Made by a program: the position numbers and the translations under genes | Part shown: positions 1,590-45,716 of the stretch, one piece after another | How the letters are laid out: each line of letters starts with the position of its first letter | Numbering within the stretch: the stretch's first letter is position 1 | The notes under the pieces: model-generated | Seen by the model: only the letters and a program-made list of their open reading frames with translations | What the model was told of the DNA's origin: nothing | The model's database searches: none | Source: a virus | Virus record (IMG/VR): IMGVR_UViG_3300045988_056969 | Coordinates: 46,751-110,750 of that record | DNA: 64,000 nucleotides | Direction: 5' to 3' (one strand)

Positions 1590-1731
1590 TTTTTTATATA
1601 TTTCATCGGAAGCGTTCGAGAATTAACCTACTAACACCCTTCATTCAACACTACGTTATCTTTTGCCTAGAGGCAAGGATATTACTTAGCAAACTAAAAA
1701 AAATAATAAAATGTTTCTAAATATATAATAA

Positions 1732-1827
1732 CTTGACATTGGAATTGGCATTGCTGACGTCATTGTTAGAATTGAAATAGCTGAGACCTGCATTGCTGCC
1801 ATTATTCGCGTTGCTGCCTACTAGCAG
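1732..1827. repeat. DGR template repeat (TR), about 96 bp, non-coding, between RT and target gene
   Basis: Near-identical to 1932-2027 and (as reverse complement) to 29286-29375. Almost all differences fall where TR carries A in the coding sense. Confidence 0.8.
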
Positions 1828-1905
1828 TACTTTTTTGCCAATCAACGGTTTTTAGAAGTAATATCCTACGATTTATCATCTAAATCGATTTTTATATTGT
1901 ATATC

Positions 1906-3723: not shown

Positions 3724-3732
3724 ATCATTGTA

Positions 3733-6700
3733 TTATTAAAGTTTCACCAACTACATCGTGATCTATTCTCTCTATGGAAGCAGTTAGGTCCTCAACAGCC
3801 TTCTACAATTCTGCTTTAGTAGCATAGTTCTTGAGAACTTCCTAGTCTACTCCAGAGCCTCCTCCTATACTTCCTCCAACAACTTTTACTGGTTTGGCAG
3901 AACTCTTAAACTGTCCTTCAATATAAATTGTTCCCATATTGTTTAAAATATTAATTGTTCATTTTCTCCATCTACCTCTACACTAGAACCTGGCTATAAA
4001 GCGTCTATCTTTTTCTACAATTCGGCTACGGCCTAGCTAATTAGTTCTTCTACCTCAGCTTTGGTGTAGTATCTCTCTATAAGATATTCGCTCCTAACAT
4101 ATCCAGTATCTTGTAAATCTTTTTCTCCATAGGTGCAATAATAAGTATCTTCTTCAGTCTTACTATTCTCAACTAGGTCATCATAATCAGCTTGTGGTAA
4201 GCATACAAGTTTTGGTACTTCTTCAGTAATAGCAACTTGCTTGCCTCCAGCAAATAGCCTGTTATCTTCTGTGGTAAGTTTAACAGAACTCTCAATAACT
4301 TGCTCAGTTCCTGTTTCCTCAGAAGGTTCTCCAGTTGTTCCCTATTGTACTTCTTTTTCTCCAATTTTCTAAATAGTAATATCAGAAGTTTCTACTGATG
4401 TAGATTTCAAAAGCTCAGTGCTAAATTCTTTAGCAGCAGCAGCCTAATCATCCTGATATTTTTTCTAGGTAACAAATATGAAATCATCATCTCCGGTTTC
4501 AGGAGAGTCTCCCCTTAAACTTTCTTTTGTTACGTAATCTTCGGCTATCTAATCTGATAAATTAGATAATGACTATTGAGTAGCATAAGTAGACTGAGCA
4601 TTTTCCTTAGTAAGAAATTTGTCATCAACCTGCTAAATAGTATAATAAGCCTTAATATCTTCTGTAGTAACGTAGTTTCCAAGTTTTTGCAAACCTTGAA
4701 CTATTTCATCAATCTACTTCTTGGAGTAATAATTTGTAGCAACCCAGGACTGATATTGATTAGTAGTATGATAATTCTAATCCAAATATTCCTTAGTAAT
4801 ATAAACCTTTGCATCATTTGTAACGTCATATACATAGTAATATGTATCAGGCTCTACCGTCCCTTCCTCTACTAACTTTAGATACTCTTCTTCAGTTAAT
4901 GTTACTAAGTTCGGAATATCCGATTCAGTAGCAATCTAATCTTCACCTATAAATAATCCTTCAGACTTAACGTCTACTACTAACTAGCCCTCTCCCTCCA
5001 CTACAGGAGATTTTATCTACCCAACAGTGATGCTTTCTAAGGAGCCATCTCCATCTACCTTAAGAGTTTTATCTAACTCGTCTTGGATAGCCTACTAATC
5101 TTCCTCATATTCTTTCTTTGTAACGAAGACAAAATCATCTCCTTCCATTCCCTCTCCTCTAAGGCTTTCTTTAGTAACGAAAATATCGTTTGTTTCTTCC
5201 TTAGTATAATACTTAGTCAGTGATAGAGCTAAAGAATCGTTAGAGACATAATTAGTAGTTAATTCTTCCAGTGTAGCATAATCTGATAGGCTAGCAATAG
5301 TGTTATCTAAGTCTGTTCTAATCTATACTACAGTAGTATTAAGAGCCTTCTATTTTAATTGCTCTTCTATCTTTTTCCCCCATTCCGCGGATAGGTAAAA
5401 CTAGTTATCGTCTAAGCTATCCTCATATATATAATAATATGTCTCAGCATGAAGATATGGTTTACTTTCATCTATGGGCCTAAAATCGTCTGTAGTATTC
5501 TCAGACCATTCTTTATATTCAGCCTCTGTACAGGTGATTATCTAGATAGATTCATAGGATGCTTTCCATCCTTCCTTGTATTTAATCTTAGACTTATCAA
5601 TCAGCATATAAATATTTCCGTTATCTATGTTAGCAACGGTCATACCTTGATAAGCATACTTCTCTGGAATAGAATAAAGTTCGTCTAAGTTATTAACGAC
5701 TGTTCTATTATCGAGAGGCTTCGGAGTTTCTACGGTTAAAGCGACACCTAAGGTAGCATCACCTGTATATTTAAATGCCATTATTGTGATAGAATAAAGT
5801 TAATTTGATGTGGCAATGCTGAGGAGTAAGTATCTTTCTTAGTCCATACCTTGTAAGTAAATCCATTTATCTACTCGGTAGACGTTTCCCAACCACTTAG
5901 GTCTACATTTAAATATCCAAGTCCTCCATCTACGGTAAATGAATTTAACTATGTGTTACTTCCTGGCAATTTTATAATAGCCTTACCACTTAGTGAAAAT
6001 GTGATAGTTCCAGACGATTGTCCAAAAGGAACTAGCGCCTATTTAATCACACCATCAGTATTACCAGAATACCAAGGATATGTGGCTACTACCTAAGCGG
6101 TAGCGGAAATAGAACCAGCTTCTACTCTCTTATCTGTAACTTCTCCTTTATTATTTATCAAATATTCTCCAGCGGCATAACTCACTGTACCAGAGTGAGT
6201 ATAAGTACCAATAGAATTATATGTATCAGACTCTACAGGAGAACTGTTATAAGTAATAGTTTCTCGTCTGTCAGTTTCTTCTCCAGCATCATTCTTTATA
6301 AATGTAAGTGTAGGAGTTAATAAAGCAGTTCCCACTTCTACTATTTGAGAAGTAAAACTATAATAAAGCTATGGGTATACTAAATCTCTAACTACTGTTG
6401 GAAACAGTAAAGTATCAATAATTTCATTAAAGGGCTTGCCCTTAAGTTTCTCTACTGTAGTCCCTTCAATTACTGTTGAAGTAGTATCATCTGGGAGTTC
6501 CGTCTAATAAGTAGCTATAGTTTCTAAGTTAGTTTGTATATTAGTAATACTTTCAGTATTAGCTTCTACTTTAGTATTTGTCTCTTGTTGTGCTTCCTAA
6601 GTTTTCTATACTTCTTTCTTTGTTTCTTCTAGAGCAGGTTCAAGATTCTTAACATAGATACCTGGAAGGATAATAGAAGAGGTTTCCTCTCCAATCTCCT

Positions 6701-9700
6701 ATTCTATTAAATGAATAGCATTATCTTCCTAAGTAGATAAAATCACCTCTAAGGAATTATTTTCCTTTAGTTCTATAGTTTTGGAATTTTGGAGACTATT
6801 CTTAATCCAATTAAGAATGTTTTTATCAACATCTATATTCTCAATAGCATTGTTCAACTCAACTATAGCTTCATTGATTTTTACTATTTCTTCAGATAGA
6901 TTATTAATTCCTTTTCTATTAGTATCAATTTCTCGCTGTAAATCCTCCTTCAATACAGATATAGAAGTTCTAATATTGCTTATATCGACTTTCAGTTCTT
7001 CTATTGCTTCTGTATTAGATTCATATTCGCTAATAAAGTATAGGGCATAGTCTAGGGCATCCTTCACAGTATTAATGCCTTCTGCAACGTCACTAGTATA
7101 GGTCCATTTTTGTTCTATATACTATACTAGGTCTTTTTGCAGTTCTATGGTTCCACTAATGTTTCCCCACAATAGACTCTACTCATCAGCAATACCTAAG
7201 TTCTTTCTTACTTTAGCTTTTTCTAGTTCTGTCCTATATTCTCCTAAATAGTTATTTCTTAAGAGAGGTATAGGCTCACATTTTATAGGCTTACCCTTTT
7301 TACCACAAGGCACTATATCTGCGTTACTTACCGAAGTGTAAATAGACTGTATCATTCTAGTTTAATAATTGCTATTTAATAAATTCGTGATTATCTAGTC
7401 TTACAGGTAGGTTAATAAAACAAATTAGATTAAGAATATCTTGATAATCTGGTTTATATCCCTTTTTGAGTTTTCTTAGAAAATCCTCATACCTTTTAAT
7501 AGCCTTTCTCTTAAGAGCATCCACAACCTATACGTTTATGTCCATGGTAGTGATTGTCACAGAATCCTCCACAGGTACGGAACATCGCTAGTAATCTTTC
7601 AGCCTCCATGAATTGTTTAAAGCATATTAAATAATCTATAATGTTAAGAGTCATCCATATAAAATCTCGAGCAAATATATCTGCTTCCTAATCTCTAGTT
7701 AGACACTTATTTAGTAAAGCATCAAAGAGTTTCTTACAATAATTAATGTAACACTACTACAAGTTTCCTGTAAAGAAAACATCTACCTTACATTTTTTTA
7801 TAGTAGTTCCTTCTATGTTTCGTTCAAGAACTTCTTTAACTGTACACTCTTCTAGCTTACCTTCTACTTCTTTATATAATTTTTCTCCATCAGTAACATA
7901 GATAGTCTCATAGTATTCCTTGTATTCGTCCGATGAATTTTCATACCATTTCATATTAGGAATAATGATATGGTCTACTACGTAATAACCATCATCCTTG
8001 ACCTTAAACATACACGAGTCTAAGTCTTCTGTATGGTCATTAAGTAGGACATCTATCAGAGTAGCATCGCTTATACTAACTTTGATGATAGTATTCAAGG
8101 TAGCACTCTCACTATACTTATAGGAGTCGTAAGAAGTTACTACCTCTACATCTTCATCAATATACTAGCCATATTCTTTTGAGAAATCTTCTATCAGTAT
8201 TTCCCCATTAATTTGGGTATGTATATCAATACTAAATTCCATATTGCAATAATATTAAGTGTTAGGCCATTGACCGTATTGAGCTGGTGTAGAAAAAGGT
8301 CCCCACTTTCCAGATTGCTTTATACGTCTAGACATAAAAACAGAAGTAAAAGATAAACTAATATCTTGTGGATAGTCAGTCCAGGTATAAGACTATCCAT
8401 CTGGAGTAGGAGGTAATTTATCAATCCCAGAGGAGGGCTGTCCATTCCAGTAGTAGTTATAGTCATAGGCTTTAATAGAGGTTACTTCTGTGGTTTCTCT
8501 CCCGTCAGAATCTATATAGAGAGGATCTCCTTTTTCATTCGTTTTTTGTTTATACTCTATAACTGGTGTTATTCCCTCGGTTCTAGTATATATAGTCTAT
8601 ATAATAGTAGAGACATCACTCGCTACTATTTCATAGATAGTAGTTCCCTATGATTCATCAGCTCCCTAAAAAGTAAATTTAGTTCTTTTCCATATATATG
8701 GATTCTCTTCTGTTGGAAGCTCAAAAGTATCAGACCACTACTTACTTGATAGTTTTATTTCAGATTCATCGGCAGTATTAGCAGGGAGATAATGTATTTT
8801 AATAATAATACTATTAACTGCTTCACTTGAACCGGATAAATCTGATACCTACTTAAATAATTTTTTTAAGTCGTCTTCTACATTTGATTTAGAACCGGAA
8901 GCATTACTTATAATTACTGTCCCATCAGAGATAGGATAAATCTACTACTAATCTTTGTTGTATACAATTGTTCCAGTTGCCATATTAATGTATTTGTCTT
9001 ATTTTGTCATTATATGGATTTCCATCATGAAGCTAAGCCAACTCTATTTCAGTTCTTTTTTCTTCAATATCCATTTGTCTATCTTTATAAGTAGAATCAG
9101 ACTGAGCTTTAAGCCAGTTAACTTTATATTCTAACTGCATCTTCTACTATTCTAATCCCAGTCTCTATTCATCTAAGCTTTCAATCTTTTGCTGAGCTTT
9201 CTATAATTCTTGCTGTAACTACTAAGCCTATTGAGAGGTTTCTTCTAATTTTTCTTGTAGTTGCTGAAGCTGATTATTTTCCTCTTTGCGAACTTGAACA
9301 GCTTTCTTAACCTTATATTTAAGGTCTGTCAGACTCTTAGATGTAAGAGCCTCAAAAATAATATCTGGATCCATCTGTTGACTTTTTACGAACTCTGGAA
9401 TGATTGCTTTTATAGTCTATAGATCTTCCATCACTTCTGAACTAGCAGTAATATGAATATCGTAGTCAGTAACAGTAAAATACTCAGGAAGTGCTGTAAA
9501 TATCTGTTGATATTTATCCCCAAGTATAATAGTTCCAGTTAATCCTTTCTTATAAGTAACTTTAGCCTAATTAAGACTATCTAGTAGTATCTCGCAGGTT
9601 ATTAAATCCATCTGCTAAAAATAGTGCTTAGTTACTATATACGAGTTAGCTACTCCCTACTTAATATTAGTAACTGCATCTCTAGTTTCTATACCGTTAA

Positions 9701-11347
9701 GTCGTTCCCTAAATACTCCAGTTATTGATGATGTAGTTTGTTCTACTGATTGAATAGCTAATTCAATAGCCTATACAGCCTATGCTTTTAAGGTATCATC
9801 AAATCCGTTATATATCTAGTTTGGAGCTTGCTGTCCGTCATTCCTACCTTCTTGGCTTGAGTCTATCCACATGATACCACCTTTTTTATAAGCTAACCAT
9901 TTTTGTACTCGTTCTGGCCATTTAACTCCTAAGTTGGTAGGCAACAGAGACATATCCATAATAACTCCAGCAGTACCACTATTAGCTATTAGATTATCTC
10001 TATAATAGTTTAATAAGTCGTATCTATCCTACAGATGTGCACATTTTAATATAAGAGAATAAGGCTACTAAGAGCGATTTAAGAAATATACTCCATTTAC
10101 CGATAAAGAACAGAAGTTGGGATTATCTTTAGACCTCATAACAGTCTTGTCTAATCCTCTAAGAATATATATCTCTTCTCCTATTCTGATAGTATTGTAT
10201 CTCTACATCACAAAATCATCATCTGTTTCAATCCATTCAACATCATAGACTGGGATTAACTAGAACCTATGAGCACTATATTCATTGTCTGGATAGCCGG
10301 GAATGGTTTCATGATTCTAATCTTCATTTACTACTGTACAAGTATCTCCATATACTCTTCTATAAACAGCAGCTGAATCATCAGCTCGCCATTCATCTTT
10401 TAGTCTTCTTAAATCTTCTCTAGATATTTCTTTGCCATATTTAGCTAAAATCTAACTCTTACTCATCCACTTTCTTACTACAACTCTATATGAGTTCCTT
10501 ACATATGGAGATTCTGGATTTCTATCAACAAATGTATTAAGTGGGTTTAATACCTCTATTTCAATATTAGTTCCAGAAGCCGATGATTTCACTCTAAAGA
10601 ATGTATAACCAGTAATTAATAAGTCTGTTAGTAACTAACGTAACTTAGTAATTAAATCGGTTTCTCTGGATTGCATAATATAATGTACTATATTCTAAGC
10701 TGCAATTTCATATTGAGAAATAAAGGATTGGTCAATATCCTATATAATTTTATCTAACTAAGTCTTTACAGCTTTATCAGTAATATCCTTGCCATCAATA
10801 AACTTAAGAATTGAATTACTTAAATGGTCTTTCAAAAACTTTACTATTCCCTTGGTTATTTCTAGCTATTTTTCTCTTGTTATATTACTGATAGTATCTG
10901 AATCTTTGCAAGAAATTTTCGGAAGTATAGGAGTTCCTAAATATTCTCCAACTAGAGCATCTACGTGTTTCTTTAATAAAGGCGTAAACTCTACCGAAGT
11001 GGGGCTACCTATTCCGAAGTTTTCTTCCAGATAACGGAACTATTCAGGATCTCTTTTACCATTATAATAATTATAAGCTTTCTGTAACTCATACTTATCA
11101 TATACAAGTTCCGCAATAGCCTCGTTTGTCTTGTCTATCAATTCCTTCTCTTTCATAACATAAATTATGTTGTTCTGGAGGAAGTTTAGTAGCGTTATAA
11201 TACTTAACTCTTTGTAACTTCCTACTTCTTAATTCTTCCTTAATAAATGGCAGAAATTCTTCGTCTGGTAAATCTGCTATTATTACTAATGGCATTTCTG
11301 ACCTATCAAAGTTAAAAGAGACTTTATACCCAACTGGGTCTAAACTC
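3733..11347 (-). other. Late virion-structural gene block on the minus strand; genes fragmented by very frequent in-frame TAG; includes coiled-coil fibre-like fragments and a portal-like C-terminal region near 9.0-9.96 kb
   Basis: Only short same-strand ORF fragments (4173-4364, 5542-5781, 6093-6335, 6729-7067, 7757-8098) and none of 60 aa or more between 8.1 and 11.1 kb. Manual translation of 9003-9960 with TAG=Q gives a continuous protein with a portal-like Gln-rich coiled-coil C-terminus. Confidence 0.45.
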
Positions 11348-13711
11348 TCAATATCTAGTCCGCCTATATACTCCATTTTGTACAAGTCCCTCATATATTC
11401 TAGGATCACTTGTTTCAACTCTGTATGGGTCATCATATTCGTTTCTTTGCATATTAAGTTCAGGAGTTTTCTTAGTTGGAATAACTCCAAATCTTTTAAT
11501 TCCTCTCTCGTCGTAATAGTAACCAAAATCTTGGAACTATTCAACTTCTTTCTCCACAAGTACGGGCTGTCTTCCTGATAGCTCTTGGTCTGCTAACTCA
11601 GTCATACCTACAGCGGCTACAATATCATACTTACCCTTATTTTCATCATTATATGCAGTGAACTATTCTAGCATTTCTTCGAACCATATAGTATGGCAAT
11701 AGTCTTCTATAAAGGCGGCTGTTAAATCAGTATGCTATTCGATTATAGTTTTTGTAGCAGGAGTTCCATACTATTTAGTAGTTCCATTTCTAACGTCAGT
11801 TAGAGTAGCTCTTGGGCGCTTCATAAAATAGTTAAGGCATCCTTTTTCTCTAGCCCAAGTAACCATACCCATACGAGTAGCTTCTATATTTATTTTACAA
11901 TTATAATAGCGAGCTAAACACATAGCTATTTTATAGGCTTCTCTGATGTCTCCAGGTCTATCCTTGTACATAGCAACATACTGAGGGTCATTCATACCAA
12001 ACGCACGTTTCTTAATCATTATGCAGAAATCAGACGGGTCTCTGGTTTCCTTAGAAGTCTAATTCGCTCCAATATCAATACCGTCTATACCTGCTACATA
12101 TAAGTCTCGCATCTCTTTATAAACTGGAACTTCAAAATCCTAGCCATTATCTTCTGCCTCCTATCTAAGCTTTTCCATTTGTTCTTTATATAAGTCAGAC
12201 CATATTGGATGCTCTAGAATTTTTACTTTGCCATTGCTGTTAGGAATCCATTTAAAACCATCAATATTATCCTAAGTATGTTTATTATTTTTGTAAAAAT
12301 AATCAATATAACCACATTCGGGTCTTGGGCCAATTTGTTTAAGTCTTATATTAGCTATCTATTCGGCAACTAAAATTTTATTAAACTTATTAACACCTTC
12401 TAGATTAAATGCTTCTTCTGCATTCCAACAACGTTCAGCGCATTTCTTTAGGTAGTCTTCTGGTACAGCTAACAGATTATCTCGCTCCTCCTATAAGAAT
12501 TTCTTATATTCCACAGTATTACATACTCCTCTGTGGTCCATAAATTCTGGATTCAAAGATTGTATAAAGTATGGAATAAAGAATCCACTCTCTATAGTAG
12601 TCCCATCCTAAGTCCAATTATGTCTAAATGGAAGAATCTTATATGCTCTTGGATTATAGTAAATCTTTTTTAAGCCCTCTAGAGGAGCACCCATATCACC
12701 GCCAGTACCTCCAAACAACATTGTTCCACGAGGCATACCTTGAACTTCACAAAGTTCTTGACCTTGTACCACAGCGGTATCAAGTCCAGGCCAGGAACCA
12801 GCTTCATCATATATTAATAAATCTACACGGTCTCCACGAATATTAGATGGTTTAGCTCCGTTAATTGCTACAACCTCAGATTTAAATCCTACGTCTTCAA
12901 ACTAACCATTTATTTTGATTTGTTTACCTGATTTCTTTCTCAAATCCTGGTCAATAAGTCGCAATTTAAAAAATCCTCCTCCAGTACAGGTATTTAAGAA
13001 TGTAAGAGCATTATCAAACTTACTAAAGGTACCCTTAAGGAAGGTATCATTAAAGCAAGTAATCATAACCCTACTTCTTCTAATAACAGAGTACATACGA
13101 GCAGAAAGAGAGGCGTTTATTTCAGAGAATCCAATAGAACGAGCTTTCATTAAAGCTGCGTGCTTGTGTAGCACTCTAGCCATCTATAGATAATGAAAGA
13201 ACATATAATGTGATGCAAAGAATATTGGGAAGTCATTATCAGTACCCTCACCAGAGGCTTTCTGCTAGTCAATAGTAGGTAACTAATAGAAATTTAAGAA
13301 GAAGTAATTATCTCCAGTAATGGTGTATCCATTAACTGTCATTCCATACTTACATCTTCTATATTGCTCTTTCCAAAATTCGTTGTACCGCTTACTATCT
13401 CTAAGGTAGGGACAGTATTGACCAGTTCGTTTATATACTTCCCTAGTCTCGGTAAACCAATCTGGATTAAAGTCCAATCCATGAGTTTCGTCAATAGGTC
13501 TGTATCCAGTTATTTCATAAGATAAGGTAGGGTCAAATACTTCTATTTTATCTCCTATTTTAACATCCCAATAGTCAGAATTTCTGACCCTTTCCTCTCT
13601 TATTTTCTATACTAATTCTCTAGCTTCTTTAGCATCCTCTTTCTATTCTTTTTCTCTTACCTAATCTACAATATTCTATATTTCTTCAGGTAATATCTTT
13701 TTTCTTGGCAT
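11348..13711 (-). CDS. terL: Terminase large subunit (787 codons) with about 25 in-frame TAG codons; stop TGA at 11348-11350
   Basis: Same-frame fragments 11771-12019, 12902-13183 and 13283-13477 are joined by TAG. Walker-B-like VDLLIYDEAGSW; nuclease motif YVAGIDGIDIGAN...DPSDFC; length typical of TerL. Confidence 0.75.
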
Positions 13712-15823
13712 AATTAAAAGTCTCCTGGGTCAAAACCATCCACAGCTCCAGCTCTAACAGTAGATTGTTCAGTAAGTTCTTTCTTAACCTAGTCTTCTAG
13801 TGTTATGAGTTCTTCATGAACTTTGTGAAGAGTAGCCATTTCCTTCATTACTTTTTCAGCCTGGAATACTGGCTTGCCGTTATTATCACGCTCATTTAAA
13901 TCTACAATAGTTTCGAAATAATCAATAAACTAGTCTGCAGCTCTTTTAGCTGCTTCTAGTAATTTTATTGACTTGTTTGAATCTTGTAACGCTCTGTATT
14001 TCCTACAAGCTTCTCTAAATATAGGGTCATTAAATTCTGACTCTGTCAATCCAGAATCACTAATAGCTTCGTCATGTCGTTCATGTTCCGAATACTAACT
14101 GTACGGACTTTTCCAGTCTATAGCTAAATAAATGTAAGATAGTTCTCTAGTAGCTCTATCCTTTTCTGCAGATTTATCCCTCTAGATTAAAGCCTTAAAT
14201 TCCTTAACTAGTAATATCTCTGGTTCATTTATTTCTAGCTATTTAGTTAAAGTGTTATAGTTAAATACATTCATAATCATTAATCATTATCATACACATT
14301 AGATAATCTTATTATTTCTTTTTCATTTTGGAACCGCACTTATTGACTTTCATTTTTGAGCCACAAGCGTCTTTCTTAGCATATTGTTTTCTGTCAGGAA
14401 CCCATTTTCCTCCCTGGAAATTACCCTTATGTCCTTTATTGGCCATAGTTTCCTAATCATTGTATTTATTGATTGATATAGAATCTCTTGAGGCTTCGTC
14501 TCTAGCAGATTTCATATCTTTCTTATACTAAGCTCTTCCTGCCTTAAATTTATCAACTTCATTAGCTTTCTTAGTAACTTTAGTTCCTTTTTGTGCTTTC
14601 TGGCAAGCTTTACAGATTCTACCGCCTTGCTTAAAATATACAAGCTCTTCTCCTTCTGGACATACTCCTTTTAGCTTCTTATAATACTCAAGCTTAGCTC
14701 CAAGCCTAGCCATTACTCCTCCTTGCATTTTCTGCATAAATTCCTGATACTTAGCTTTAATGCCGTCTTCACCTAATTGTTCAGCATAAGCTTGTAAATC
14801 CTGTTCAGACTATATCTGAACTCCCTATGACTGCGCATCCTATATTAAATATGCCACAAACGCTTTTTGTAATTCTTGTTGATTATTCATTGTTCCTCCT
14901 TGTTGAAATTTAGTTGTATGTCCCGGAGATAATGTTAATGGTTTAGCTTCTGATTTTCTAGAATTCCATACATCTCCAAGATAATTAAATAATCTCTATA
15001 ACCCCCTATGTATCCCAAAATCTCCTCCTTGTACTGTATTTCCCATAGTATATCTAATGGTAGAAGGTTGTTTAGGCTTACTTGAAGGCTACTCGGCTCT
15101 TGTCTATTCACTAGCTGGCTAACTGCCTCTTGTAATAGTTGGTATTCCTCTACCCCAAGTAGTTCCTTTTGTTGTAGCAATTAGGTCTGGAGCTTCTATA
15201 CTAATCTAAGTATCTGACTAAGGAATCTGAATGGTAGAAGGTTGTTTAGGCTTACTTGAAGGCTGTCCTAAGTCTGTAGTATATACAGAATTTCCCCACA
15301 TAAACTGTTTTAGTCCTCTCTCTCTAGCAGCCCTAAAAGCTGTCTTAAAATCTTTAACACCTCTTAAATCATCCTAAGCTATTTCAGCAGTAGGAAGAGG
15401 TTCTAATCTTGTGGGTAATGAAGGCATTTCTGGAGCATCAAAATATGCCTCTTGTAACTTAGGCATTTTCTATTGTGCGGTTCTTCTAATAATGTCTGGA
15501 TTAGTTGCCCAAGTCTAATGCAACTACCTCAAGGTTCTCTCATCTAAGTCCGCATCTCCGTAAATAATTTTGATATTACGCATCAATTCAGGGTCAAACT
15601 ACACTTTAGCCATTACTTTTCTACTTTAATTAAATCCTTAGTATTAAACACTGCTTCCTACATAAGTCCGGAATCAGTAAACCATCTACATCTTAATCCT
15701 CGTAATCCTTGGTTATCTTTAAATAAAGCTGCTTCTCTTCTTAGAACAAGCATAACTGGAGAATGCATTACTTTACACTACCGTAAAGTAACACAATCCC
15801 CAGGCTTAAAATAAACTTTTTCA
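13712..15823 (-). other. Additional late genes with in-frame TAG (fragments 14528-14737 zinc-ribbon CxxC..CxxC; 14935-15180)
   Basis: Short minus-strand ORF fragments in several frames; boundaries not resolved. Confidence 0.3.
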
Positions 15824-20287: not shown

Positions 20288-20304
20288 AACTATTAATTTT
20301 GGCG

Positions 20305-20376
20305 TTGCCCTACTAGGATTCGAACCCAGACTAAATGATTTAGAGTCATCTGTGCTGACCATTACACCATAGGGCA
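20305..20376 (-). tRNA. Suppressor tRNA, anticodon CTA (reads UAG); clean cloverleaf; probably Gln-derived
   Basis: Minus-strand TGCCCTA-T-G-GTGT-AATGGTCA-GCAC-A-GATGA-CTCTAAA-TCATT-TAGT-CTGGG-TTCGAAT-CCTAG-TAGGGCA-A. All stems pair. The D-arm is identical to the tRNA-Gln(TTG)-like gene at 34198. Confidence 0.8.
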
Positions 20377-21240: not shown

Positions 21241-21687
21241 ATGGCAACAGAAAGAAACAGCCGAGAAAAGGGTGAAGCACTCGCAGCGGCACAGGGTACA
21301 CAAATCAAGGATTTTGCAGCAGCAGGAAAAACTAATTTACCACCTACGGAACTTGCAAACGTGGAAGTAGGGGAAGAGTTCACAATTCCCAATGACTACA
21401 AAATCTATGAACGTGAATTTAACGGTAACAAATATCAGTTTGTTGTTACCGAAGAAGGAAAATTCTTTTACGTTTCATGGCTCACACGTGGAGCAAAGCC
21501 CAAAGACGGGGGAGATTTTGTAAGACCTAAAGGTACAGTAATCGAAAAATTTTACAAAAATCCTAATGCCTCTTACGATGAGGCATTTAAGGGCATCACT
21601 GGGAAACCTATGATAGTAAAAGAATTTACCAAAGTTGAAGGTGAAAACTTTACCACAAAGGTGGCAACCATCGACTTTGTAAAATAG
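21241..21687 (+). CDS. Early hypothetical protein, paralog of 22121-22579; ends with a genuine TAG stop
   Basis: ORF track; shared motif LTRGA.P.DG.DFVRP.GTV; TAG 21685-21687 followed by a terminator hairpin. Confidence 0.6.
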   Translation: MATERNSREKGEALAAAQGTQIKDFAAAGKTNLPPTELANVEVGEEFTIPNDYKIYEREFNGNKYQFVVTEEGKFFYVSWLTRGAKPKDGGDFVRPKGTVIEKFYKNPNASYDEAFKGITGKPMIVKEFTKVEGENFTTKVATIDFVK

Positions 21688-21696
21688 TTTAACATT

Positions 21697-21719
21697 GGGT
21701 AGGGGTGACAGACCTACCC
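21697..21719 (+). terminator. Stem-loop GGGTAGG-ggtgacagac-CCTACCC followed by a T-rich tract
   Basis: Perfect 7-bp inverted repeat right after the TAG stop. Confidence 0.5.
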
Positions 21720-23343: not shown

Positions 23344-23413
23344 TCCCTACTAGTATAATGGATTGCGTCTCCCTTTAAAGGAGAAGATTCTGGTTCAAGT
23401 CCAGAGTAGGGAT
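23344..23413 (+). tRNA. tRNA with anticodon TTA (UUA; would read UAA, and UAG by wobble); ochre-suppressor-like
   Basis: TCCCTAC/GTAGGGA acceptor; anticodon arm TCTCC-CTTTAAA-GGAGA; T-arm TCTGG-TTCAAGT-CCAGA. Confidence 0.6.
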
Positions 23414-23448
23414 CTTCATAGTTATATTATTTGTGATTATTACTTTTC

Positions 23449-25763: not shown

Positions 25764-26137
25764 ATGATAAATGTAGACGAATTAAGAAACAAAAAGTAGC
25801 TCGGAGAAATAGGAGAGCGTATAGCCATTGGTGAATTATCAAAATATGGATTAGATATTTTATTACCAATGTCTGACAATCTACCATTTGATTTTGTTAT
25901 AATAACAAGTTTTACAGAACTTAGGTGAAAACTACTGCGAGTAAAACTGTAAATAACTCGTTGAACTTTAGTTTAACAAGTAATAATTATAACAAAGGGA
26001 CCGTTCACAAATACAACGAGGATGAAATAGATATTATGATATGTTGCGACCTTCATAACATCTATATATTTCCAGAATGTGATGTTGCTAATAGAAATTC
26101 TATTACTATTAGGGAGGAACCTCCAGCTAATAATTAG
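25764..26137 (+). pseudogene. YraN/UPF0102-like PD-(D/E)xK endonuclease paralog, apparently frameshifted; carries TAG at the motif-III position
   Basis: 25764-25927 gives MINVDELRNKK-Q-LGEIGERIAIGELSKYGLDILLP...FDFVIITSF, then TGA. A different frame (25925-26137) continues RT-Q-VKTTASKT..., parallel to the 27326-27727 protein. Confidence 0.4.
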
Positions 26138-26284
26138 ACAAAAGGTATAAACTTTGCAAAAGATTGCATCATATCTATAGAAAGATTAAATTATACTTTC
26201 TCTAAGATAGAGAAATAATTCCCTATTAATAGGGAAGTCTTTTATTCCGCTAGTAAACATTTGTTGTGAAACACGTGTTTGCAT

Positions 26285-26357
26285 CTGGGTATAGTCGAGT
26301 TGGTAAGATGCTACATTTGGGATGTAGAGACCGCAGGTTCGAGTCCTGCTATCCAGA
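26285..26357 (+). tRNA. tRNA-Pro (anticodon TGG); D-stem irregular
   Basis: CTGGGTA/TATCCAG acceptor; anticodon arm CTACA-TTTGGGA-TGTAG; T-arm GCAGG-TTCGAGT-CCTGC. Confidence 0.6.
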
Positions 26358-26569
26358 CAAGAAGTAATCAACATTCACTATTAGTACAGCAATTAGGACT
26401 GTAGGGTGCCTTTTAGATGAATCCCCGATTACTCCAATTAACAGAGGTGAGTTCCCTTAAAATTGTTACCACGCACTAGTGCGGCTATTAGCTACTAGAG
26501 GACTTGGGGTGCCAAGAGGAAGAATTGTAGTAGCTATGTTAATTAGAACAAATCTGTTAATTGCTTTAT

Positions 26570-26653
26570 GGGATAGCGCCAACGATGGAGAGTTGGGACG
26601 GACTGTAAATCCGTTGCCTTTAGGCTTAGTAGGTTCGAATCCTACCTATCCCA
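26570..26653 (+). tRNA. tRNA-Tyr (anticodon GTA), long variable arm
   Basis: GGGATAG/CTATCCC acceptor; anticodon arm ACGGA-CTGTAAA-TCCGT; 14-nt variable arm; T-arm GTAGG-TTCGAAT-CCTAC. Confidence 0.75.
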
Positions 26654-26680
26654 CAATTATGTAAAATAACTTACCAAAAG

Positions 26681-27052
26681 ATGATAAGAATTTCTAGAAT
26701 TGTAGCTAAGGATAGAATAGCAGATTTGCTAGACTTGAATTTCGTATCTAAGATAACTCTTAGACAAGGTAGACAAGGATTCAAAAATCCTGCAATTTGC
26801 AGAGTGGAAATCTATCTCCAAGTAGATAATGATACAGAATACTTTAATAGTGTTATGAGTAACATTGTTGACTGGGGAAAGGAGCGTAATTGTAATATTG
26901 CTGTTACCACAGCAAATATGGCTCTACATGATGGATTTATTAAAGAGTCTGCATTTGATGACTTTGATTATCCTATGCCAAAAAAGTATAAGGACTTATG
27001 CAGCGTATATTCTGACGAATATTTTAGACTATTTAATAGGAGAAAGATATAA
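26681..27052 (+). CDS. Hypothetical protein
   Basis: ORF track. Confidence 0.45.
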   Translation: MIRISRIVAKDRIADLLDLNFVSKITLRQGRQGFKNPAICRVEIYLQVDNDTEYFNSVMSNIVDWGKERNCNIAVTTANMALHDGFIKESAFDDFDYPMPKKYKDLCSVYSDEYFRLFNRRKI

Positions 27053-27265
27053 TGGAAGACAAATATGAAGGGCTATCTGATGAAGAACTCAAAGAAATCT
27101 TCGAAGATATGCAGGCAGACTATTGGATAGATTATTATCAATCTATCTATGAATAAAACCCTATTAGCGAGACCTAGGATATGGATTTTAGAAATATGTA
27201 TACCCACTGCATATAGGTTAGTCATATTTAAATGAGGAAACCAGGGTTCTCTACTAGGTCGATTC

Positions 27266-27300
27266 GGGATTGTAACCGGTAATTGGTAGCCGCGCAGATT
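27266..27300 (+). tRNA. 5' half (exon 1) of a split type-II tRNA: acceptor GGGATTG, D-arm, 5' strand of the anticodon stem GCAGA
   Basis: Pairs perfectly with the 3' half at 27826-27872 (acceptor 7/7 bp, anticodon stem GCAGA/TCTGC). Confidence 0.5.
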
Positions 27301-27325
27301 AAACTAATAATTAAAAATTAAATTT

Positions 27326-27727
27326 ATGGAATTAAGAGAATTTTCTACTTTTACTAAATAGGGAAATGTAGGACTTGCTTATGCTATTGCCTATTATTCT
27401 AAATTAGGGTATACTATTAGTATTCCCTTAACTGATTCACAAGATTATGACATAATAGTTGATACTGGAAATACCTTACTAAAAGTGTAGGTAAAGACTA
27501 CAACTTGTAGAAGAGATAGTGGAAACTACTAGTTAAACTTAAAAGTAAGTGGCGGAAATAGAAGCGGAACAGGAAAAGTAAAGACCTTCGATTTAAATAA
27601 ATGCGACCTGATATTCGCAATGACTGAGTAGTTTGAATTTTATTCTATTCCGAGGTCTGAAATTTCTGCAGCATCTTCTATTACTCTTGGAGAAAAGTAT
27701 TTACCTTTCAAGGTGTCTTTAATTTAA
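27326..27727 (+). CDS. YraN/UPF0102-like PD-(D/E)xK endonuclease (133 aa) with 4 in-frame TAG; sits inside the interrupted tRNA; absent from the ORF track
   Basis: MELREFSTFTK-Q-GNVGLAYAIAYYSKLGYTISIPLTDSQDYDIIVDTGNTLLKV-Q-VKTTT... fits the G.GE..A..YL...GY.IL...GEIDLI...VEVK pattern; TAA at 27725-27727. Confidence 0.55.
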
Positions 27728-27733
27728 TAAGAG

Positions 27734-27817
27734 GGGAGATTATTCCGTAGATGGTAGCGGGGCGCACTGTAAATGCGCTGCCTAACGGCTCGGGGTGTTC
27801 GACTCACTCATCTCCCA
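27734..27817 (+). tRNA. tRNA-Tyr-like (anticodon GTA) with a long variable arm, lying inside the tRNA-interrupting insertion
   Basis: GGGAGAT/ATCTCCC acceptor; anticodon arm GCGCA-CTGTAAA-TGCGC; T-arm GGGTG-TTCGACT-CACTC; weak D-stem. Confidence 0.5.
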
Positions 27818-27825
27818 CTACTAAT

Positions 27826-27872
27826 AAATCTGCTCTCTTTTGAGACTGGAGGTTCGAGTCCTCCCAATCCCA
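27826..27872 (+). tRNA. 3' half (exon 2) of the split tRNA: TCTGC anticodon-stem strand, variable hairpin CTCTC-ttt-GAGA, T-arm GGAGG-TTCGAGT-CCTCC, acceptor CAATCCC, discriminator A
   Basis: Complementary to exon 1 at 27266-27300. Confidence 0.5.
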
Positions 27873-34197: not shown

Positions 34198-34270
34198 TGG
34201 GCTATGGTGTAATGGTTAGCACTACAGATTTTGATTCTGTCAGTCTAGGTTCGAGTCCCTCCTACCCTAC
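34198..34270 (+). tRNA. tRNA-Gln-like (anticodon TTG); D-arm identical to the CTA suppressor; T-arm and acceptor irregular, so possibly degenerate
   Basis: TGGGCTATGGTGTAATGGTTAGCAC...ACAGA-TTTTGAT-TCTGT; acceptor TGGGCTA/TACCCTA with one C-C mismatch; T-stem pairs only 2-3 bp. Confidence 0.45.
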
Positions 34271-37752: not shown

Positions 37753-37837
37753 ATCCGTGTGGGTGAATGGTTTAGCCATCAGTCTGCAAAACTGAAAAGA
37801 GAAATCTTTAATGAGGGTTCGAATCCCTCCACGGATT
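37753..37837 (+). tRNA. Atypical type-II tRNA with anticodon GCA (Cys), a 17-nt variable arm and discriminator U
   Basis: ATCCGTG/CACGGAT perfect acceptor; anticodon arm TCAGT-CTGCAAA-ACTGA; variable hairpin AAAGA-gaaa-TCTTT; T-arm GAGGG-TTCGAAT-CCCTC. Confidence 0.55.
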
Positions 37838-37848
37838 CTAATTTTAAA

Positions 37849-38493
37849 TTTAAAAATATGGCATATATTTATTGCATTACAAATTTAATTAATAGCAAGC
37901 GATACGTAGGAAAAACTACTACTTCTATAGAAGAGCGCTGGAAGGAACATTGTTATGACTTTTAGAAAGAAAGATGCAACAAAAGACCTTTATATGATGC
38001 CATGAATAAGTATGGTGTTGAGAACTTTATGATAGAGGAATTGGAATATGTAGATAGTAACTCTGAATTATCTGAAAGAGAAATCTATTGGATAAAAGAG
38101 CTAGGAACTTATGGTTCTAATGGGTACAATGCCTCTAAAGGAGGAGATGGCACTATTCTATACAATCATAGTGAAATTGTAGAATTAGCTAGATTGGGAT
38201 ATACTAGTTCTTAGATACAAGAAAAAATAGGGTGCTGTAAAGACACTATTTACAAAGTTTTGAAGGCAAATAATATAAAAATTAGAAAAAGTAACGCAAA
38301 GTTAATTGCTTAGTATGACTTAGCAGGTAATTTTATACAGGTATTCTTTGGTTCCAGAGAAGCTTAGGAATGGTTAATTAATAACGGAATTACTGACAAT
38401 AAATCTGCATAGAGTCATATTATAGGATGCTGTAAGAATAAAACCAAATCATAGTATGGCTACATTTGGAAATATCTTCCAGAGCCTATTTAA
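37849..38493 (+). CDS. GIY-YIG homing endonuclease (about 214 aa) with 6 in-frame TAG; track fragments 37702-37965 and 38002-38214 are pieces of it
   Basis: MAYIYCITNLINSKRYVGKTT...EERWKEHCYDF-Q-KERC...NKYGVENFMIEELE...REIYWIKELGT..GYN is collinear with I-TevI. The C-terminus IGCCKDTIYKVLK...KSQYGYIW (NUMOD-type DNA-binding region) is reached only by reading through TAG at 38212, 38338, 38386, 38428 and 38464. Confidence 0.7.
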
Positions 38494-39559: not shown

Positions 39560-39632
39560 TGGGCCGTTAGCTCAAATGGCTAGAGCGCTGGTTTTGCACA
39601 CCGGAAGATAGGGTTCGAGTCCCTGCGTGTCC
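39560..39632 (+). tRNA. tRNA-Ala (anticodon TGC) with G3-U70, but acceptor positions 5-7 are not complementary
   Basis: GGGCCGT vs CGTGTCC; D GCTC/GAGC; anticodon arm CTGGT-TTTGCAC-ACCGG; T-arm TAGGG-TTCGAGT-CCCTG. Confidence 0.5.
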
Positions 39633-39841
39633 ACAAACTTTATTTAAAAAATTATGAAAGTATATGTAGTTGTAGTAAATTATCACCAGCTAATGCTCCT
39701 CAAAATTATGAAACTGATTGCCAAATCTTCTTAGACAAGAAACAGGCAGAGAAGTATAAAGAGGCTAAGGAAAAAGAGTTTCCTATTAGATGGGGAGGAG
39801 AGTATAATCATTGTAAACTAATTAAAAAGCATTTGTAATAT

Positions 39842-39915
39842 CGCGGGATGATAGCAGAGGTAGCTAGTCAGGCTCATAACCTGAAGGTCGTCGGTTCGAA
39901 TCCGAGTGGGGGATC
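39842..39915 (+). tRNA. fMet-like tRNA (anticodon CAT), close to E. coli initiator up to the T-loop, but the 3' acceptor strand TGGGGGA is not complementary to 5' CGCGGGA
   Basis: D TAGC/GCTA; anticodon arm TCAGG-CTCATAA-CCTGA; AGGTC-GTCGG-TTCGAAT-CCGAG, then TGGGGGATC. Confidence 0.4.
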
Positions 39916-39941: not shown

Positions 39942-40616
39942 ATGACTAGATTAGAAAAGTATTTAGTGGCAACTGCTACTGAGATTATCGAAGCGGAAAC
40001 AACTGTTTCTCGCTACTTTGTCATTGGAAACGTCAAAGTTAGAGTATCAGACCATTTAAGTAAAATGAGTGATGCAGACTTACAAGTGATTATTCCATTG
40101 AACGGAGGGACTAAGTATATAGTTACTGTTAAGGATAGTCCTGGAAAATTTCTTGTATGGAATGCAACTCAAATAAAAGACTTTATTCCTTCATTGCAGA
40201 TTATTAAGGGCTTGAAGGAAGGAGTGCAACTTAAGCCAAAACCTAAAGACTCTGCAGTTCAGAAGATTCAGCTAGCATTAAATAATAGTAATACCGATGG
40301 AGGTTCGTTAACGTTTGATGGTACTATTATTGAGTCTAGATTGAAAGAAAAGCAACTTACTTCCAAACAGCGGGAAGTTTTCAGGAGAACTAAATCTACT
40401 TGGGATATTTCTCAGATTGGGACATTACCCAGTATGATTAAAGTAGATTTAGGATTGTCAAATGGTTCTGTAAACGAAGATGTGCAGATATTTCTAACTT
40501 GTACATCTTTAACCTACAAAGAAATTCTGAACATTTATAAAATAATAGTTGTTGATAACCGTATGGTTCCAACTATTAAACTGTTGCAAGAAGCTTATAG
40601 CTTGATTGTGCAGTAG
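39942..40616 (+). CDS. Hypothetical protein (224 aa)
   Basis: ORF track. Confidence 0.5.
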   Translation: MTRLEKYLVATATEIIEAETTVSRYFVIGNVKVRVSDHLSKMSDADLQVIIPLNGGTKYIVTVKDSPGKFLVWNATQIKDFIPSLQIIKGLKEGVQLKPKPKDSAVQKIQLALNNSNTDGGSLTFDGTIIESRLKEKQLTSKQREVFRRTKSTWDISQIGTLPSMIKVDLGLSNGSVNEDVQIFLTCTSLTYKEILNIYKIIVVDNRMVPTIKLLQEAYSLIVQ

Positions 40617-40619
40617 GAT

Positions 40620-40691
40620 AGCGCCATCATCTAATGGTTAGGATTCAGGCTTTTCACGCCTGCCATACGGGTTCGAATCCCGTTGGCGTTA
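40620..40691 (+). tRNA. tRNA-Glu (anticodon TTC)
   Basis: AGCGCCA/TGGCGTT; D ATCT/GGAT; anticodon arm CAGGC-TTTTCAC-GCCTG; T-arm ACGGG-TTCGAAT-CCCGT. Confidence 0.7.
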
Positions 40692-45055: not shown

Positions 45056-45370
45056 ATGGATTTCATCGCAACTAGAGTCAGTGAACTCTTAGAAAAGGTT
45101 TCACCCATTAGACGATGGCTTATTTCCGATGTTGCGAATGAATACTACCGTGAAGGTTATCAAGATGGTCAGAAGCTAGTCTATAGAAATGTATTGAAAG
45201 GTAACGCATTGAAAGAGTTTATCGAAATTCTTAATCATTGCGGAATCAAATTGAGTTACAATCTGCGGAAAGGAGGTTTAATTGTCAGTGTGAGAACTGA
45301 CAAACTTCCCAATCTGCAACGCCTCGTTGAATGTTATAAAAATGAAAGTAAAGAAGACAAGAAATTTTAG
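45056..45370 (+). CDS. Hypothetical protein
   Basis: ORF track. Confidence 0.45.
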   Translation: MDFIATRVSELLEKVSPIRRWLISDVANEYYREGYQDGQKLVYRNVLKGNALKEFIEILNHCGIKLSYNLRKGGLIVSVRTDKLPNLQRLVECYKNESKEDKKF

Positions 45371-45716
45371 TGATGCCCCACCTCTTGATGTTCAGTGTGA
45401 CTACATCATGAAGAACTTTGACTTTGATAAGGTTCTAGAATACATGAGTTGGGACAAGAGTCATAGAACATATGACGATGATGGGAAATGTGTAGGAAAG
45501 TCTCCTTGGAGGATGTATATAAGTCCTGGAGAGTATAGAGTTCCATCTATTTCTGACCTAAGAGCACTAGCTAGAGACTTACTTACGCAAGTAATAAGAA
45601 ATTATAGAAACAGTAAATCAACATTTGTTTCTATATCTACTGGGCCATTTAAGGCTATGTGTAGATATGGTATGCTAGAGTTGATTGGTGTTATAGAATC
45701 TTGGAGCGGTGATTGA
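45327..45716 (+). CDS. Hypothetical protein
   Basis: ORF track. Confidence 0.45.
   Translation: MNVIKMKVKKTRNFSDAPPLDVQCDYIMKNFDFDKVLEYMSWDKSHRTYDDDGKCVGKSPWRMYISPGEYRVPSISDLRALARDLLTQVIRNYRNSKSTFVSISTGPFKAMCRYGMLELIGVIESWSGD

Follow-up and report, generated by a model that had tools for sequence, protein, structure and literature searches.

Introduction

I-Ssp6803I, a PD-(D/E)XK homing endonuclease encoded by the group I intron of the Synechocystis tRNA-fMet gene and known from a crystal structure (2OST), is the nearest described relative of the genes considered here. Genes of its Pfam family, PF11645 (PDDEXK_5), occur in introns that interrupt tRNA-fMet at position 33/34 (PMC13011429). A second system of relevance is SegB of phage T4, a free-standing homing endonuclease of the GIY-YIG type, which resides in the T4 tRNA gene cluster and, in co-infection, promotes inheritance of its own gene together with the flanking tRNA region (PMC2330249). 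Moreover, crAss-like phages using genetic code 15 read TAG as glutamine by means of a phage suppressor tRNA (PMC9523058, PMC7886860, PMC12386605), and this assignment has been shown by proteomics in two crAss-like phages other than the present one (PMC9523058).

The subject of this study is a stretch of viral DNA of 64,000 nucleotides, hereafter the window, which harbors two related endonuclease genes, ORF A and ORF B. In our reading, which we hold with a probability of about 0.9, the window belongs to a crAss-like phage with genetic code 15, in which UAG is translated as glutamine by means of the phage's own tRNA(CUA), and the window contains two PF11645 endonuclease genes in whose motif the TAG codon would be an ordinary amber-coded Gln. 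The unusual part of the locus is that ORF B, accompanied by its own tRNA-Tyr gene (Tyr2), interrupts a second tRNA-Tyr gene within the anticodon loop (Table 1).

ORF B has in common with I-Ssp6803I the Pfam family, the fold and a D...QVK motif featuring Gln, as well as the size of approximately 130-150 aa and the association with a tRNA gene, including insertion within the anticodon loop. On the contrary, I-Ssp6803I is surrounded by a group I intron, whereas Rfam detects none around ORF B, whose element includes an entire tRNA-Tyr gene in place of an intron. The two further differ in their targets, tRNA-fMet and tRNA-Tyr, respectively, and the host of ORF B is a recoded phage in which Gln is written TAG. 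With SegB, ORF B shares the location of a free-standing endonuclease gene within a phage tRNA array, but the folds differ (GIY-YIG versus PD-(D/E)XK) and SegB does not lie within a tRNA gene.

Table 1. Positions in the window of the endonuclease genes, their in-frame TAG codons and the associated tRNA genes.
Feature	Coordinates	Strand	Evidence or remark
ORF A, second, distant predicted PDDEXK_5 homing endonuclease gene, frameshifted	25764..26218	+	PF11645 68.1 bits (frameshift repaired)
ORF A in-frame TAG codons	25797-25799; 25922-25924 (motif RT-TAG-VKTT, frame 3); 26135-26137	+	
Interrupted tRNA-Tyr(GUA), 5' part: acceptor, D arm, 5' strand of anticodon stem	27266..27298	+	
526-bp insert (ORF B and Tyr2), replacing CTG (nt 32-34) of the resident tRNA-Tyr anticodon loop	27299..27824	+	Comparison with L028
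ORF B, intact predicted PD-(D/E)XK homing endonuclease gene, I-Ssp6803I family, 133 codons, stop TAA	27326..27727	+	
ORF B TAG codon 12 (K-Q-G, near-invariant Gln column)	27359..27361	+	Q in 105/107 aligned homologues
ORF B TAG codon 55, Gln of D...QxK motif (LLKV-Q-VKTT)	27488..27490	+	Aligns to Q of I-Ssp6803I LLKVQVKSS
ORF B TAG codon 69, variable column	27530..27532	+	CAG in L001 orthologue
ORF B TAG codon 102, variable column	27629..27631	+	
Tyr2, tRNA-Tyr(GUA) carried with ORF B	27734..27818	+	ARAGORN
Interrupted tRNA-Tyr, 3' part: loop TAAA, 3' stem, variable arm, T arm, acceptor	27825..27872	+	
Stretch of intact tRNA-Tyr gene: …GCGCAGACTGTAAATCTGC…			
Stretch of Tyr2: …GCGCACTGTAAATGCGC…			
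tRNA, anticodon CUA (amber suppressor), likely decoder of in-frame TAG	20304..20376	-	ARAGORN and Rfam, 66.3 bits
tRNA-Gln(UUG), nearest kin of the CUA tRNA in the window	34199..34270	+	tRNA comparison

Genetic code and suppressor tRNA of the phage

The portal protein encoded in the window matches that of crAss001 (7QOG, E 1e-11), in an alignment too distant for the residues opposite TAG to be informative as a calibration of this codon, while a PDB sequence search with a terminase-like ORF returned no relative. In agreement with the described code-15 crAss-like phages, in-frame TAG codons are concentrated in the late or virion genes of a single strand, a gene for tRNA(CUA) is present, the early block comprises tRNA genes as well as homing endonucleases, and a reverse transcriptase of the DGR type is located within the late block; nothing essential distinguishes the window from these phages. 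The late genes contain 124 TAG compared to 123 CAA and CAG codons, which amounts to approximately half of their Gln-type codons, and single structural genes feature up to 28 in-frame TAGs.

The phage-encoded tRNA(CUA), which is well formed and presumably charged with glutamine, would decode UAG as Gln. Among the tRNAs of the window it is closest to tRNA-Gln(UUG), with an identity of 71% to a tRNA that itself scores poorly (31 bits), while the others do not exceed 64% and no tRNA-Glu is found among the six nearest ones. By itself, this identity suggests a glutamine type of the suppressor. A familiar parallel is the amber suppressor supE (glnV) of Escherichia coli, a derivative of tRNA-Gln with the anticodon CUA which inserts Gln at UAG; supE, however, is a laboratory or host mutation, whereas the tRNA of the window represents a phage-encoded recoding device.

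Affiliation of the endonucleases with the I-Ssp6803I family

Both genes encode free-standing predicted homing endonucleases of the I-Ssp6803I family. PF11645 was the sole Pfam match, reaching 67.3 bits for ORF B and 68.1 bits for ORF A after repair of its frameshift, with a cut-off of 26.1. The only significant PDB sequence match of ORF B was 2OST (E 2.3e-7), in which LLKVQVKSS aligns without gaps to LLKV[TAG]VKTT of ORF B. The AF2 model of ORF B (pLDDT 91.1) retrieved four 2OST chains as best PDB folds (TM up to 0.75, E 2e-8 to 2e-7), followed by Hjc at E 2e-3, and the Foldseek structural alignment with 2OST_A gave 29% identity. According to the model, D42 is located just ahead of strand 43-46, while Q55 and K57 lie within strand 51-58. 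D42 and Q55 are invariant across an alignment of 62 sequences, and the position of K57 is occupied by K or R among the homologues listed.

A preliminary description of this DNA had noticed the TAG codon in the motif of both genes, which is confirmed by direct reading (LLKV-TAG-VKTT in ORF B and RT-TAG-VKTT in the frameshifted ORF A), and had termed the genes YraN-like, a label that had to be abandoned. Membership in UPF0102/YraN (PF02021) is ruled out by the Pfam profiles and the fold search: only PF11645 was matched in Pfam, UPF0102 gave no match at E<=1, nor at E<=10 even when the TAG codons were read as Glu, and no YraN structure is listed among the top 50 PDB fold matches of the ORF B model. 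The likeness between the two families consists of the common PD-(D/E)XK superfamily and of a hydrophobic beta-strand bearing x-(E/Q)-x-K, but YraN has Glu where PF11645 has Gln. In annotation, the endonuclease family is labeled 'unknown function' in PHROGs and 'hypothetical protein' in GenBank phages, and assigning these genes to PF11645 corrects this trap.

Nuclease activity of ORF B is predicted from its sequence. ORF B and its nearest relatives possess Asn at residue 14, and full activity is not guaranteed because this residue replaces the Asp that is usual in most of the PF11645 family.

Glutamine at the motif position

The comparison of TAG with Gln residues of standard-code homologues covers the endonuclease genes. 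In searches with X at the TAG positions, the position of codon 55 of ORF B is occupied by Q in all 120 homologues and that of codon 12 by Q in 105 of 107. Likewise, Q-x-K/R appears in the expected context at 18 of 19 non-recoded bacterial loci, which were gathered with a pattern leaving out the motif, the remaining locus (L081) being a doubtful regex match only; in standard-code bacteria, the motif Gln is written CAA or CAG. As judged from these sequences, PF11645 natively possesses a D...Q-x-K motif, and the TAG within it is most likely an ordinary amber-coded Gln. We take the Gln of the I-Ssp6803I motif, also in view of its position in the motif, to act in catalysis, while most PD-(D/E)XK nucleases have Glu or Asp at this fold position. 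Two invariant or near-invariant Gln columns are occupied by TAG in each paralogue. Seven of the eight Gln-type codons of ORF A and ORF B are TAG, so that the motif TAG is no special coincidence and is conspicuous only because nearly every Gln of the two genes is written in this way.

The preliminary description had placed TAG at the conserved Glu of an ExK motif. The register is correct with respect to the fold position, but the conserved Glu is not, as PF11645 has Gln there; the suggestion that the enzymes are Q-variants thus turned out to be apt in that the family, which had been assumed to be YraN, has an invariant Gln at the acidic position of (D/E)xK. The opposite suggestion, an amino acid at UAG that is not simply Gln, finds no support in view of the conserved Gln columns, the alternation with CAG, the advantage of Gln in the Pfam score and the proximity of tRNA(CUA) to tRNA-Gln.

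Decoding of UAG as glutamate or another residue would give back the canonical ExK motif and would agree with the acidic residue that is typical of PD-(D/E)XK nucleases at this fold position. This reading is nevertheless highly improbable, given that every homologue, including crystallised I-Ssp6803I and the proteins of standard-code bacteria, has Gln at this position. Furthermore, orthologues alternate TAG with CAG at the same codons (the motif of ORF A in L065, codon 69 of ORF B in L001) and not with GAA or GAG, and the Pfam score of ORF B falls by 5.5 bits, from 67.3 to 61.8, when its four TAG codons are read as Glu instead of Gln. The suppressor tRNA is also nearer to the poorly scoring tRNA-Gln (71%) than to the other tRNAs of the window, and mass spectrometry of crAss-like phages gave Gln (PMC9523058).

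Equally remote is a reading in which the TAGs are real stops, translation does not proceed beyond codon 11 and both genes are decaying pseudogenes, even though decay is common among homing endonuclease genes and a 7-bp deletion does disrupt ORF A in the window. Against such decay, dN/dS amounts to only 0.03-0.04 over the whole ORFs, including the parts downstream of the TAGs (0.036 for ORF B compared with L001, 0.026 for pairs of ORF A orthologues), which shows purifying selection across the TAG codons. ORF A is open in 13 relatives with TAGs at the same three codons, apart from CAG at the motif in L065, ORF B is intact in the window as well as in L049 and L069, and late structural genes also contain in-frame TAGs in large numbers. 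With UAG read as Gln, the apparent anomaly is removed and the finding, as originally posed, is of little weight; an invariant active-site Gln written TAG nonetheless confirms once more, from internal evidence, that UAG stands for Gln in the lineage of this phage.

A homing endonuclease gene inserted together with a tRNA gene

The related contig L028 is identical to the window at 300 of 300 positions upstream and at 299 of 300 positions downstream of the insert and features CTG in its place. The junctions of the insert are identical in three independent assemblies with different flanks, namely the window, L049 and L069. An exact search of IMG/VR with the left junction returned no match, and the junction is found in one assembly from ENA and one from GenBank. 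The intact tRNA-Tyr target occurs in 36 related viral contigs, to which the 5' half of the interrupted gene is identical, and ARAGORN recognizes the two halves as a tRNA once they are joined. ORF B thereby shows the hallmark of a homing gene, presence or absence at a single, exactly defined site when closely related genomes are compared.

The non-ORF part of the insert comprises approximately 125 nt, of which 85 nt constitute the tRNA gene, and its 3' junction lacks a preceding G. The anticodon stem of Tyr2 (GCGCA/TGCGC) is unlike that of the interrupted tRNA-Tyr, and the alignment of Tyr2 with L001 contains two compensatory stem changes. Beyond the window, the endonuclease clade of ORF B adjoins tRNA-Tyr, lying just upstream of it, in other phages as well as in bacteria.

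The possibility that ORF B lies within a group I intron was ruled out by Rfam (at gathering thresholds and at E<=1) and ARAGORN, and no intron-containing tRNA was found in the intron mode of the latter. The non-coding regions 27157-27265 and 26359-26569 fold no better than shuffled sequences (z -0.4 and -1.7) and match no Rfam family.

As a natural footprint, the insert points to where enzymes of an uncharacterised endonuclease clade would cut, which could matter more than the identity of the motif residue, and it suggests an intron-free lifestyle for a homing element inside an essential RNA gene. At slightly less than even odds, the locus may exemplify a widespread, undescribed class of mobile elements, in which a PD-(D/E)XK homing endonuclease would target the anticodon stem-loop of tRNA-Tyr, while a cleavage-resistant tRNA-Tyr of the element itself, in place of an intron, would replace the function of the interrupted gene; in recoded phages, such an element would be amber-gated until the switch to code 15.

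TAG codons in the endonuclease genes of the early block

Three endonuclease genes, i.e., ORF A, ORF B and a GIY-YIG gene at 37858-38493, contain 13 TAG versus 3 CAA/CAG codons, whereas the 34 remaining genes of the plus strand in the interval from 21.7 to 63 kb contain 5 TAG versus 247 CAA/CAG codons. The endonuclease genes hence appear as TAG-rich islands within a TAG-avoiding early gene block, for which no description was found in the literature on code-15 crAss-like phages that was examined.

As a complement to the reading of UAG as Gln, it is tentatively proposed, with somewhat less confidence than the element class outlined above, that Gln written as TAG delays the nuclease until the suppressor tRNA is active, which would restrict the cutting of DNA to co-infection or the late phase of infection. 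The contrast in TAG usage among endonuclease (13:3), early (5:247) and late genes (124:123) is in line with such timing, as is the position of the first TAG, at codon 12 in ORF A and ORF B alike, and a late role of code 15 is backed by proteomics (PMC9523058). On the other hand, the same pattern is expected if mobile genes simply circulate among recoded phages and bring along the codon usage of another expression class, and the sample comprises three genes. The locus would offer a possible case of stop-codon recoding that times a potentially toxic enzyme.

The frameshifted paralogue ORF A

The reading frame of ORF A opens at 25764 (frame 1), and its remainder, up to the TAA at 26216-26218, lies in frame 3; the stop that follows ELR in frame 1 is TGA and not TAG. 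In comparison with 13 related contigs, in which ORF A is an intact gene of 153 codons, the window lacks 7 bp (TTATATA) between 25896 and 25897, a deletion by which ORF A is inactivated in this genome. A programmed frameshift was ruled out, since the difference from the relatives is simply an indel of 7 bp flanked by TTATA repeats. Of the related contigs, 12 have TAG as the motif codon, and L065 has CAG. An empty site is seen for ORF A as well: an allele devoid of the gene, found in L040, has 77 nt between tRNA-Lys and tRNA-Pro. ORF A and ORF B share 25% identity and are distant paralogues.

Family assignment and the motif glutamine

PF11645 (PDDEXK_5) is the only Pfam family that either protein matches, with scores of 67.3 bits for the intact gene ORF B and 68.1 bits for the frameshifted gene ORF A at a cut-off of 26.1. 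UPF0102/YraN was absent from the Pfam results of both at E<=1, and remained so at E<=10 after Glu had been put at the TAG codons. Hence, the YraN-like label of the preliminary description is to be replaced by PF11645. In the PDB, the only significant sequence relative is the homing endonuclease I-Ssp6803I (2OST; E 2.3e-7), with LLKV-TAG-VKTT of ORF B lying on LLKVQVKSS in a gap-free alignment. An AlphaFold model built from 62 homologues (pLDDT 91.1) found its best fold matches in the four 2OST chains (E about 1e-8, TM up to 0.75), followed by the archaeal resolvase Hjc and restriction enzymes at E>1e-3. In this model D42 lies just before strand 43-46, and both Q55 and K57 within strand 51-58.

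Direct reading of the window confirms TAG at the motif of both paralogs, and the proposed register at the catalytic Glu position also holds, since codon 55 of ORF B aligns with the Q of LLKVQVKSS. Accordingly placed, the TAG falls where (D/E)xK has its acidic residue in the fold, but the PF11645 residue at this position is Gln. The motif Gln of I-Ssp6803I presumably takes part in catalysis.

For a search of 5.8 billion proteins, the four TAG codons of ORF B were entered as X to keep them from seeding it. Among the best 120 homologues, the column of codon 55 holds Q in 120/120 and that of codon 12 in 105 of the 107 sequences aligned there; the columns of codons 69 and 102 are variable. Close matches may themselves be code-15 translations of recoded phage genes, so the DNA of homologues was checked: in three, two of them from bacterial assemblies, both conserved Gln are CAA or CAG and in-frame TAG is absent. 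In addition, a genome scan covering one genome per bacterial species, with a peptide pattern omitting the motif, gave 19 loci without in-frame TAG, 18 of which carry Q-x-K/R in the expected context; the remaining one (L081) is only a doubtful match for Q-x-K/R. The suggestion of Q-variant enzymes thus stands with respect to Gln at the motif, though not as variants of YraN, since PF11645 is natively Gln. The motif TAG is real as a sequence observation, and known biology accounts for it fully once the family is correct: a Q-x-K family encoded in a phage reading TAG as Gln would produce this motif.

Coordinates of the features discussed (window positions)
Feature	Position	Strand	Remarks
YADD ORF	315-1319	-	4 in-frame TAG
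Ten late genes	315-15613	-	
tRNA, anticodon CUA	20304-20376	-	well formed, 66 bits
Early TAG-ending ORFs	21241-21708, 39942-40634, 45056-45373	+	TAA or TGA shortly after
tRNA, anticodon UUA	23344-23414	+	Rfam 57 bits
ORF A	25764 to TAA at 26216-26218	+	N-terminal third in frame 1, remainder in frame 3
ORF A, missing TTATATA	between 25896 and 25897	+	
ORF A, motif TAG	25922-25924	+	RT-TAG-VKTT, frame 3
Split tRNA-Tyr(GUA), left half	27266-27298		
Inserted segment	27299-27824		526 bp
ORF B	27326-27727	+	133 codons, stop TAA, in-frame TAG at codons 12, 55, 69, 102
ORF B, codon 14	27365-27367	+	Asn
ORF B, codon 55	27488-27490	+	LLKV-TAG-VKTT
Tyr2, tRNA-Tyr(GUA)	27734-27818	+	
Split tRNA-Tyr(GUA), right half	27825-27872		
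tRNA-Gln(UUG)	34199-34270	+	31 bits
tRNA-Cys	37753-37838		
GIY-YIG gene	37858-38493	+	PF01541, E 6e-13
Rfam tRNA match	39561-39633	+	39.5 bits, no ARAGORN call
Rfam tRNA match	39851-39906	+	32.9 bits, partial, no ARAGORN call

Reading of UAG

The alternative that the residue inserted at UAG is not simply Gln was not supported, given TAG/CAG exchanges between relatives and the effect of Glu on the Pfam score, which falls from 67.3 bits with Gln to 61.8 bits at the TAG codons. At the motif of ORF A, 12 contigs have TAG and L065 has CAG; at codon 69 of ORF B, the window has TAG and L001, a 186-kb viral contig, has CAG. With TAG taken as Gln and dS above 1, dN/dS amounts to 0.036 for ORF B (window vs L001) and 0.026 for ORF A (the related contigs L056 vs L065); these low values indicate that the ORFs are translated and constrained on either side of the TAGs. 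Moreover, the tRNA with anticodon CUA is closest to tRNA-Gln(UUG), at 71% identity versus at most 64% for the rest of the window's 22 tRNAs, and the D arms of the two are almost identical. The tRNA-Gln(UUG) itself scores poorly and shows acceptor- and T-stem mismatches. For two crAss-like phages, metaproteomics has demonstrated that TAG is read as Gln (PMC9523058). A portal-like ORF of the window matches the crAss001 portal (7QOG, E 1e-11), and the layout resembles that of zeta crAss-like phages, one strand carrying the virion genes and a reverse transcriptase, the opposite strand the replication genes together with a tRNA array and homing endonucleases (PMC12386605).

The YADD motif of the ORF at 315-1319 is typical of reverse transcriptases, and this ORF probably derives from a diversity-generating retroelement. 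A tRNA of the ochre-suppressor type (anticodon UUA) is also present even though the window uses TAA most often as a stop, and two further tRNA matches were obtained from Rfam.

Two distant endonuclease genes

At 25% identity, ORF A and ORF B are distant relatives within one family and do not stem from a recent duplication. ORF A is open in L001 and in twelve more related contigs, two of which have short in-frame deletions, and its relatives carry TAG at the same three codons, with the motif codon of L065 as the sole exception. Since the relatives are open and the window lacks 7 bp compared with L001, ORF A is either a dead copy here or contains an assembly error; this deletion also rules out a programmed frameshift.

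Codon 14 of ORF B encodes Asn, as in its closest relatives, whereas Asp is usual in the family (K-Q-G-D) and ORF A carries Glu here. This Asn may bear on activity, though purifying selection on the gene is strong.

An endonuclease/tRNA-Tyr element within a tRNA-Tyr gene

Tyr2, a complete tRNA-Tyr(GUA) gene, starts 6 nt past ORF B, and a second tRNA-Tyr(GUA) gene lies in two halves around the pair, split in the anticodon loop by a segment comprising ORF B and Tyr2. The intact target tRNA (…GCGCAGA-CTGTAAA-TCTGC…) occurs in 36 related viral contigs, one of which, L028, is identical to the window at 300/300 upstream and 299/300 downstream positions, differing otherwise only by CTG (anticodon loop nt 32-34) in place of the segment. 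Both junctions recur identically in L049, an ENA assembly that differs in its upstream flank and has lost part of the 3' half, and in L069, a GenBank contig labelled Bacteroides sp. with another downstream flank; the arrangement is therefore real and has reached different backgrounds either by entry or by inheritance. In L001, the ORF B-Tyr2 pair stands where the target tRNA is otherwise found, and no split halves remain beside it.

Known PF11645 genes are carried by group I introns that interrupt tRNA-fMet genes at position 33/34 (PMC13011429), while no intron ribozyme was detectable around ORF B. The anticodon stem of Tyr2 (GCGCA/TGCGC) differs from that of the interrupted tRNA (GCAGA/TCTGC), and Tyr2 shows compensatory changes between window and L001, as would be expected of a working tRNA. 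We infer that the ORF B product would cut the resident tRNA-Tyr gene in or near its anticodon loop, and that the element would provide its own resistant tRNA-Tyr rather than rely on splicing. This tRNA-nested cassette deserves further study, as do the amber-rich endonuclease genes.

Members of the PDDEXK_5 clade were located at L050, L052, L054, L070-L088, L003-L005 and L089 (Vibrio phage Chester). In 17 of the 20 genome-scan loci (19 bacterial ones plus the recoded L069), which belong to Anaerolineae/Chloroflexia, Patescibacteria and others, tRNA-Tyr(GUA) follows the endonuclease gene at a distance of 1-89 nt and in the same orientation. In Anaerolineae, the gene lies in a conserved tRNA-Thr/Tyr/Thr-rpmG-tRNA-Trp-secE-nusG region; it also precedes tRNA-Tyr(GUA) in several viral contigs and Vibrio phage Chester, and neighbours tRNA-Ser in the T5-like coliphage SelmaRatti. 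These phage genes are annotated as 'hypothetical protein', and PHROG 5018 as 'unknown function'.

ORF A, like ORF B, is an insertion polymorphism: from tRNA-Lys to tRNA-Pro the related contig L040 has an empty site of 77 nt, compared with about 540-550 nt including ORF A in the window and ten relatives, and the insertion adjoins the hairpin CCCTATTAATAGGG.

TAG usage across gene classes

TAG is not special to the motif codon. It accounts for 124/247 Gln-type codons in the ten late genes and for 5/252 in 34 genes of the plus strand from 21.7 to 63 kb; the only TAG-rich exceptions inside this block are ORF B (4 TAG vs 1 CAA), ORF A (3 TAG vs 0 CAR) and a GIY-YIG gene adjoining tRNA-Cys (6 TAG vs 2 CAR), all three of them homing endonuclease genes. 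On one reading, the amber codons hold back synthesis of the endonucleases until the suppressor tRNA acts; on another, these mobile genes just bring the codon habits of a recoded gene pool. Few early ORFs end in TAG, and in these a TAA or TGA follows as another stop 1-7 codons further on, a pattern described for zeta crAss-like phages.
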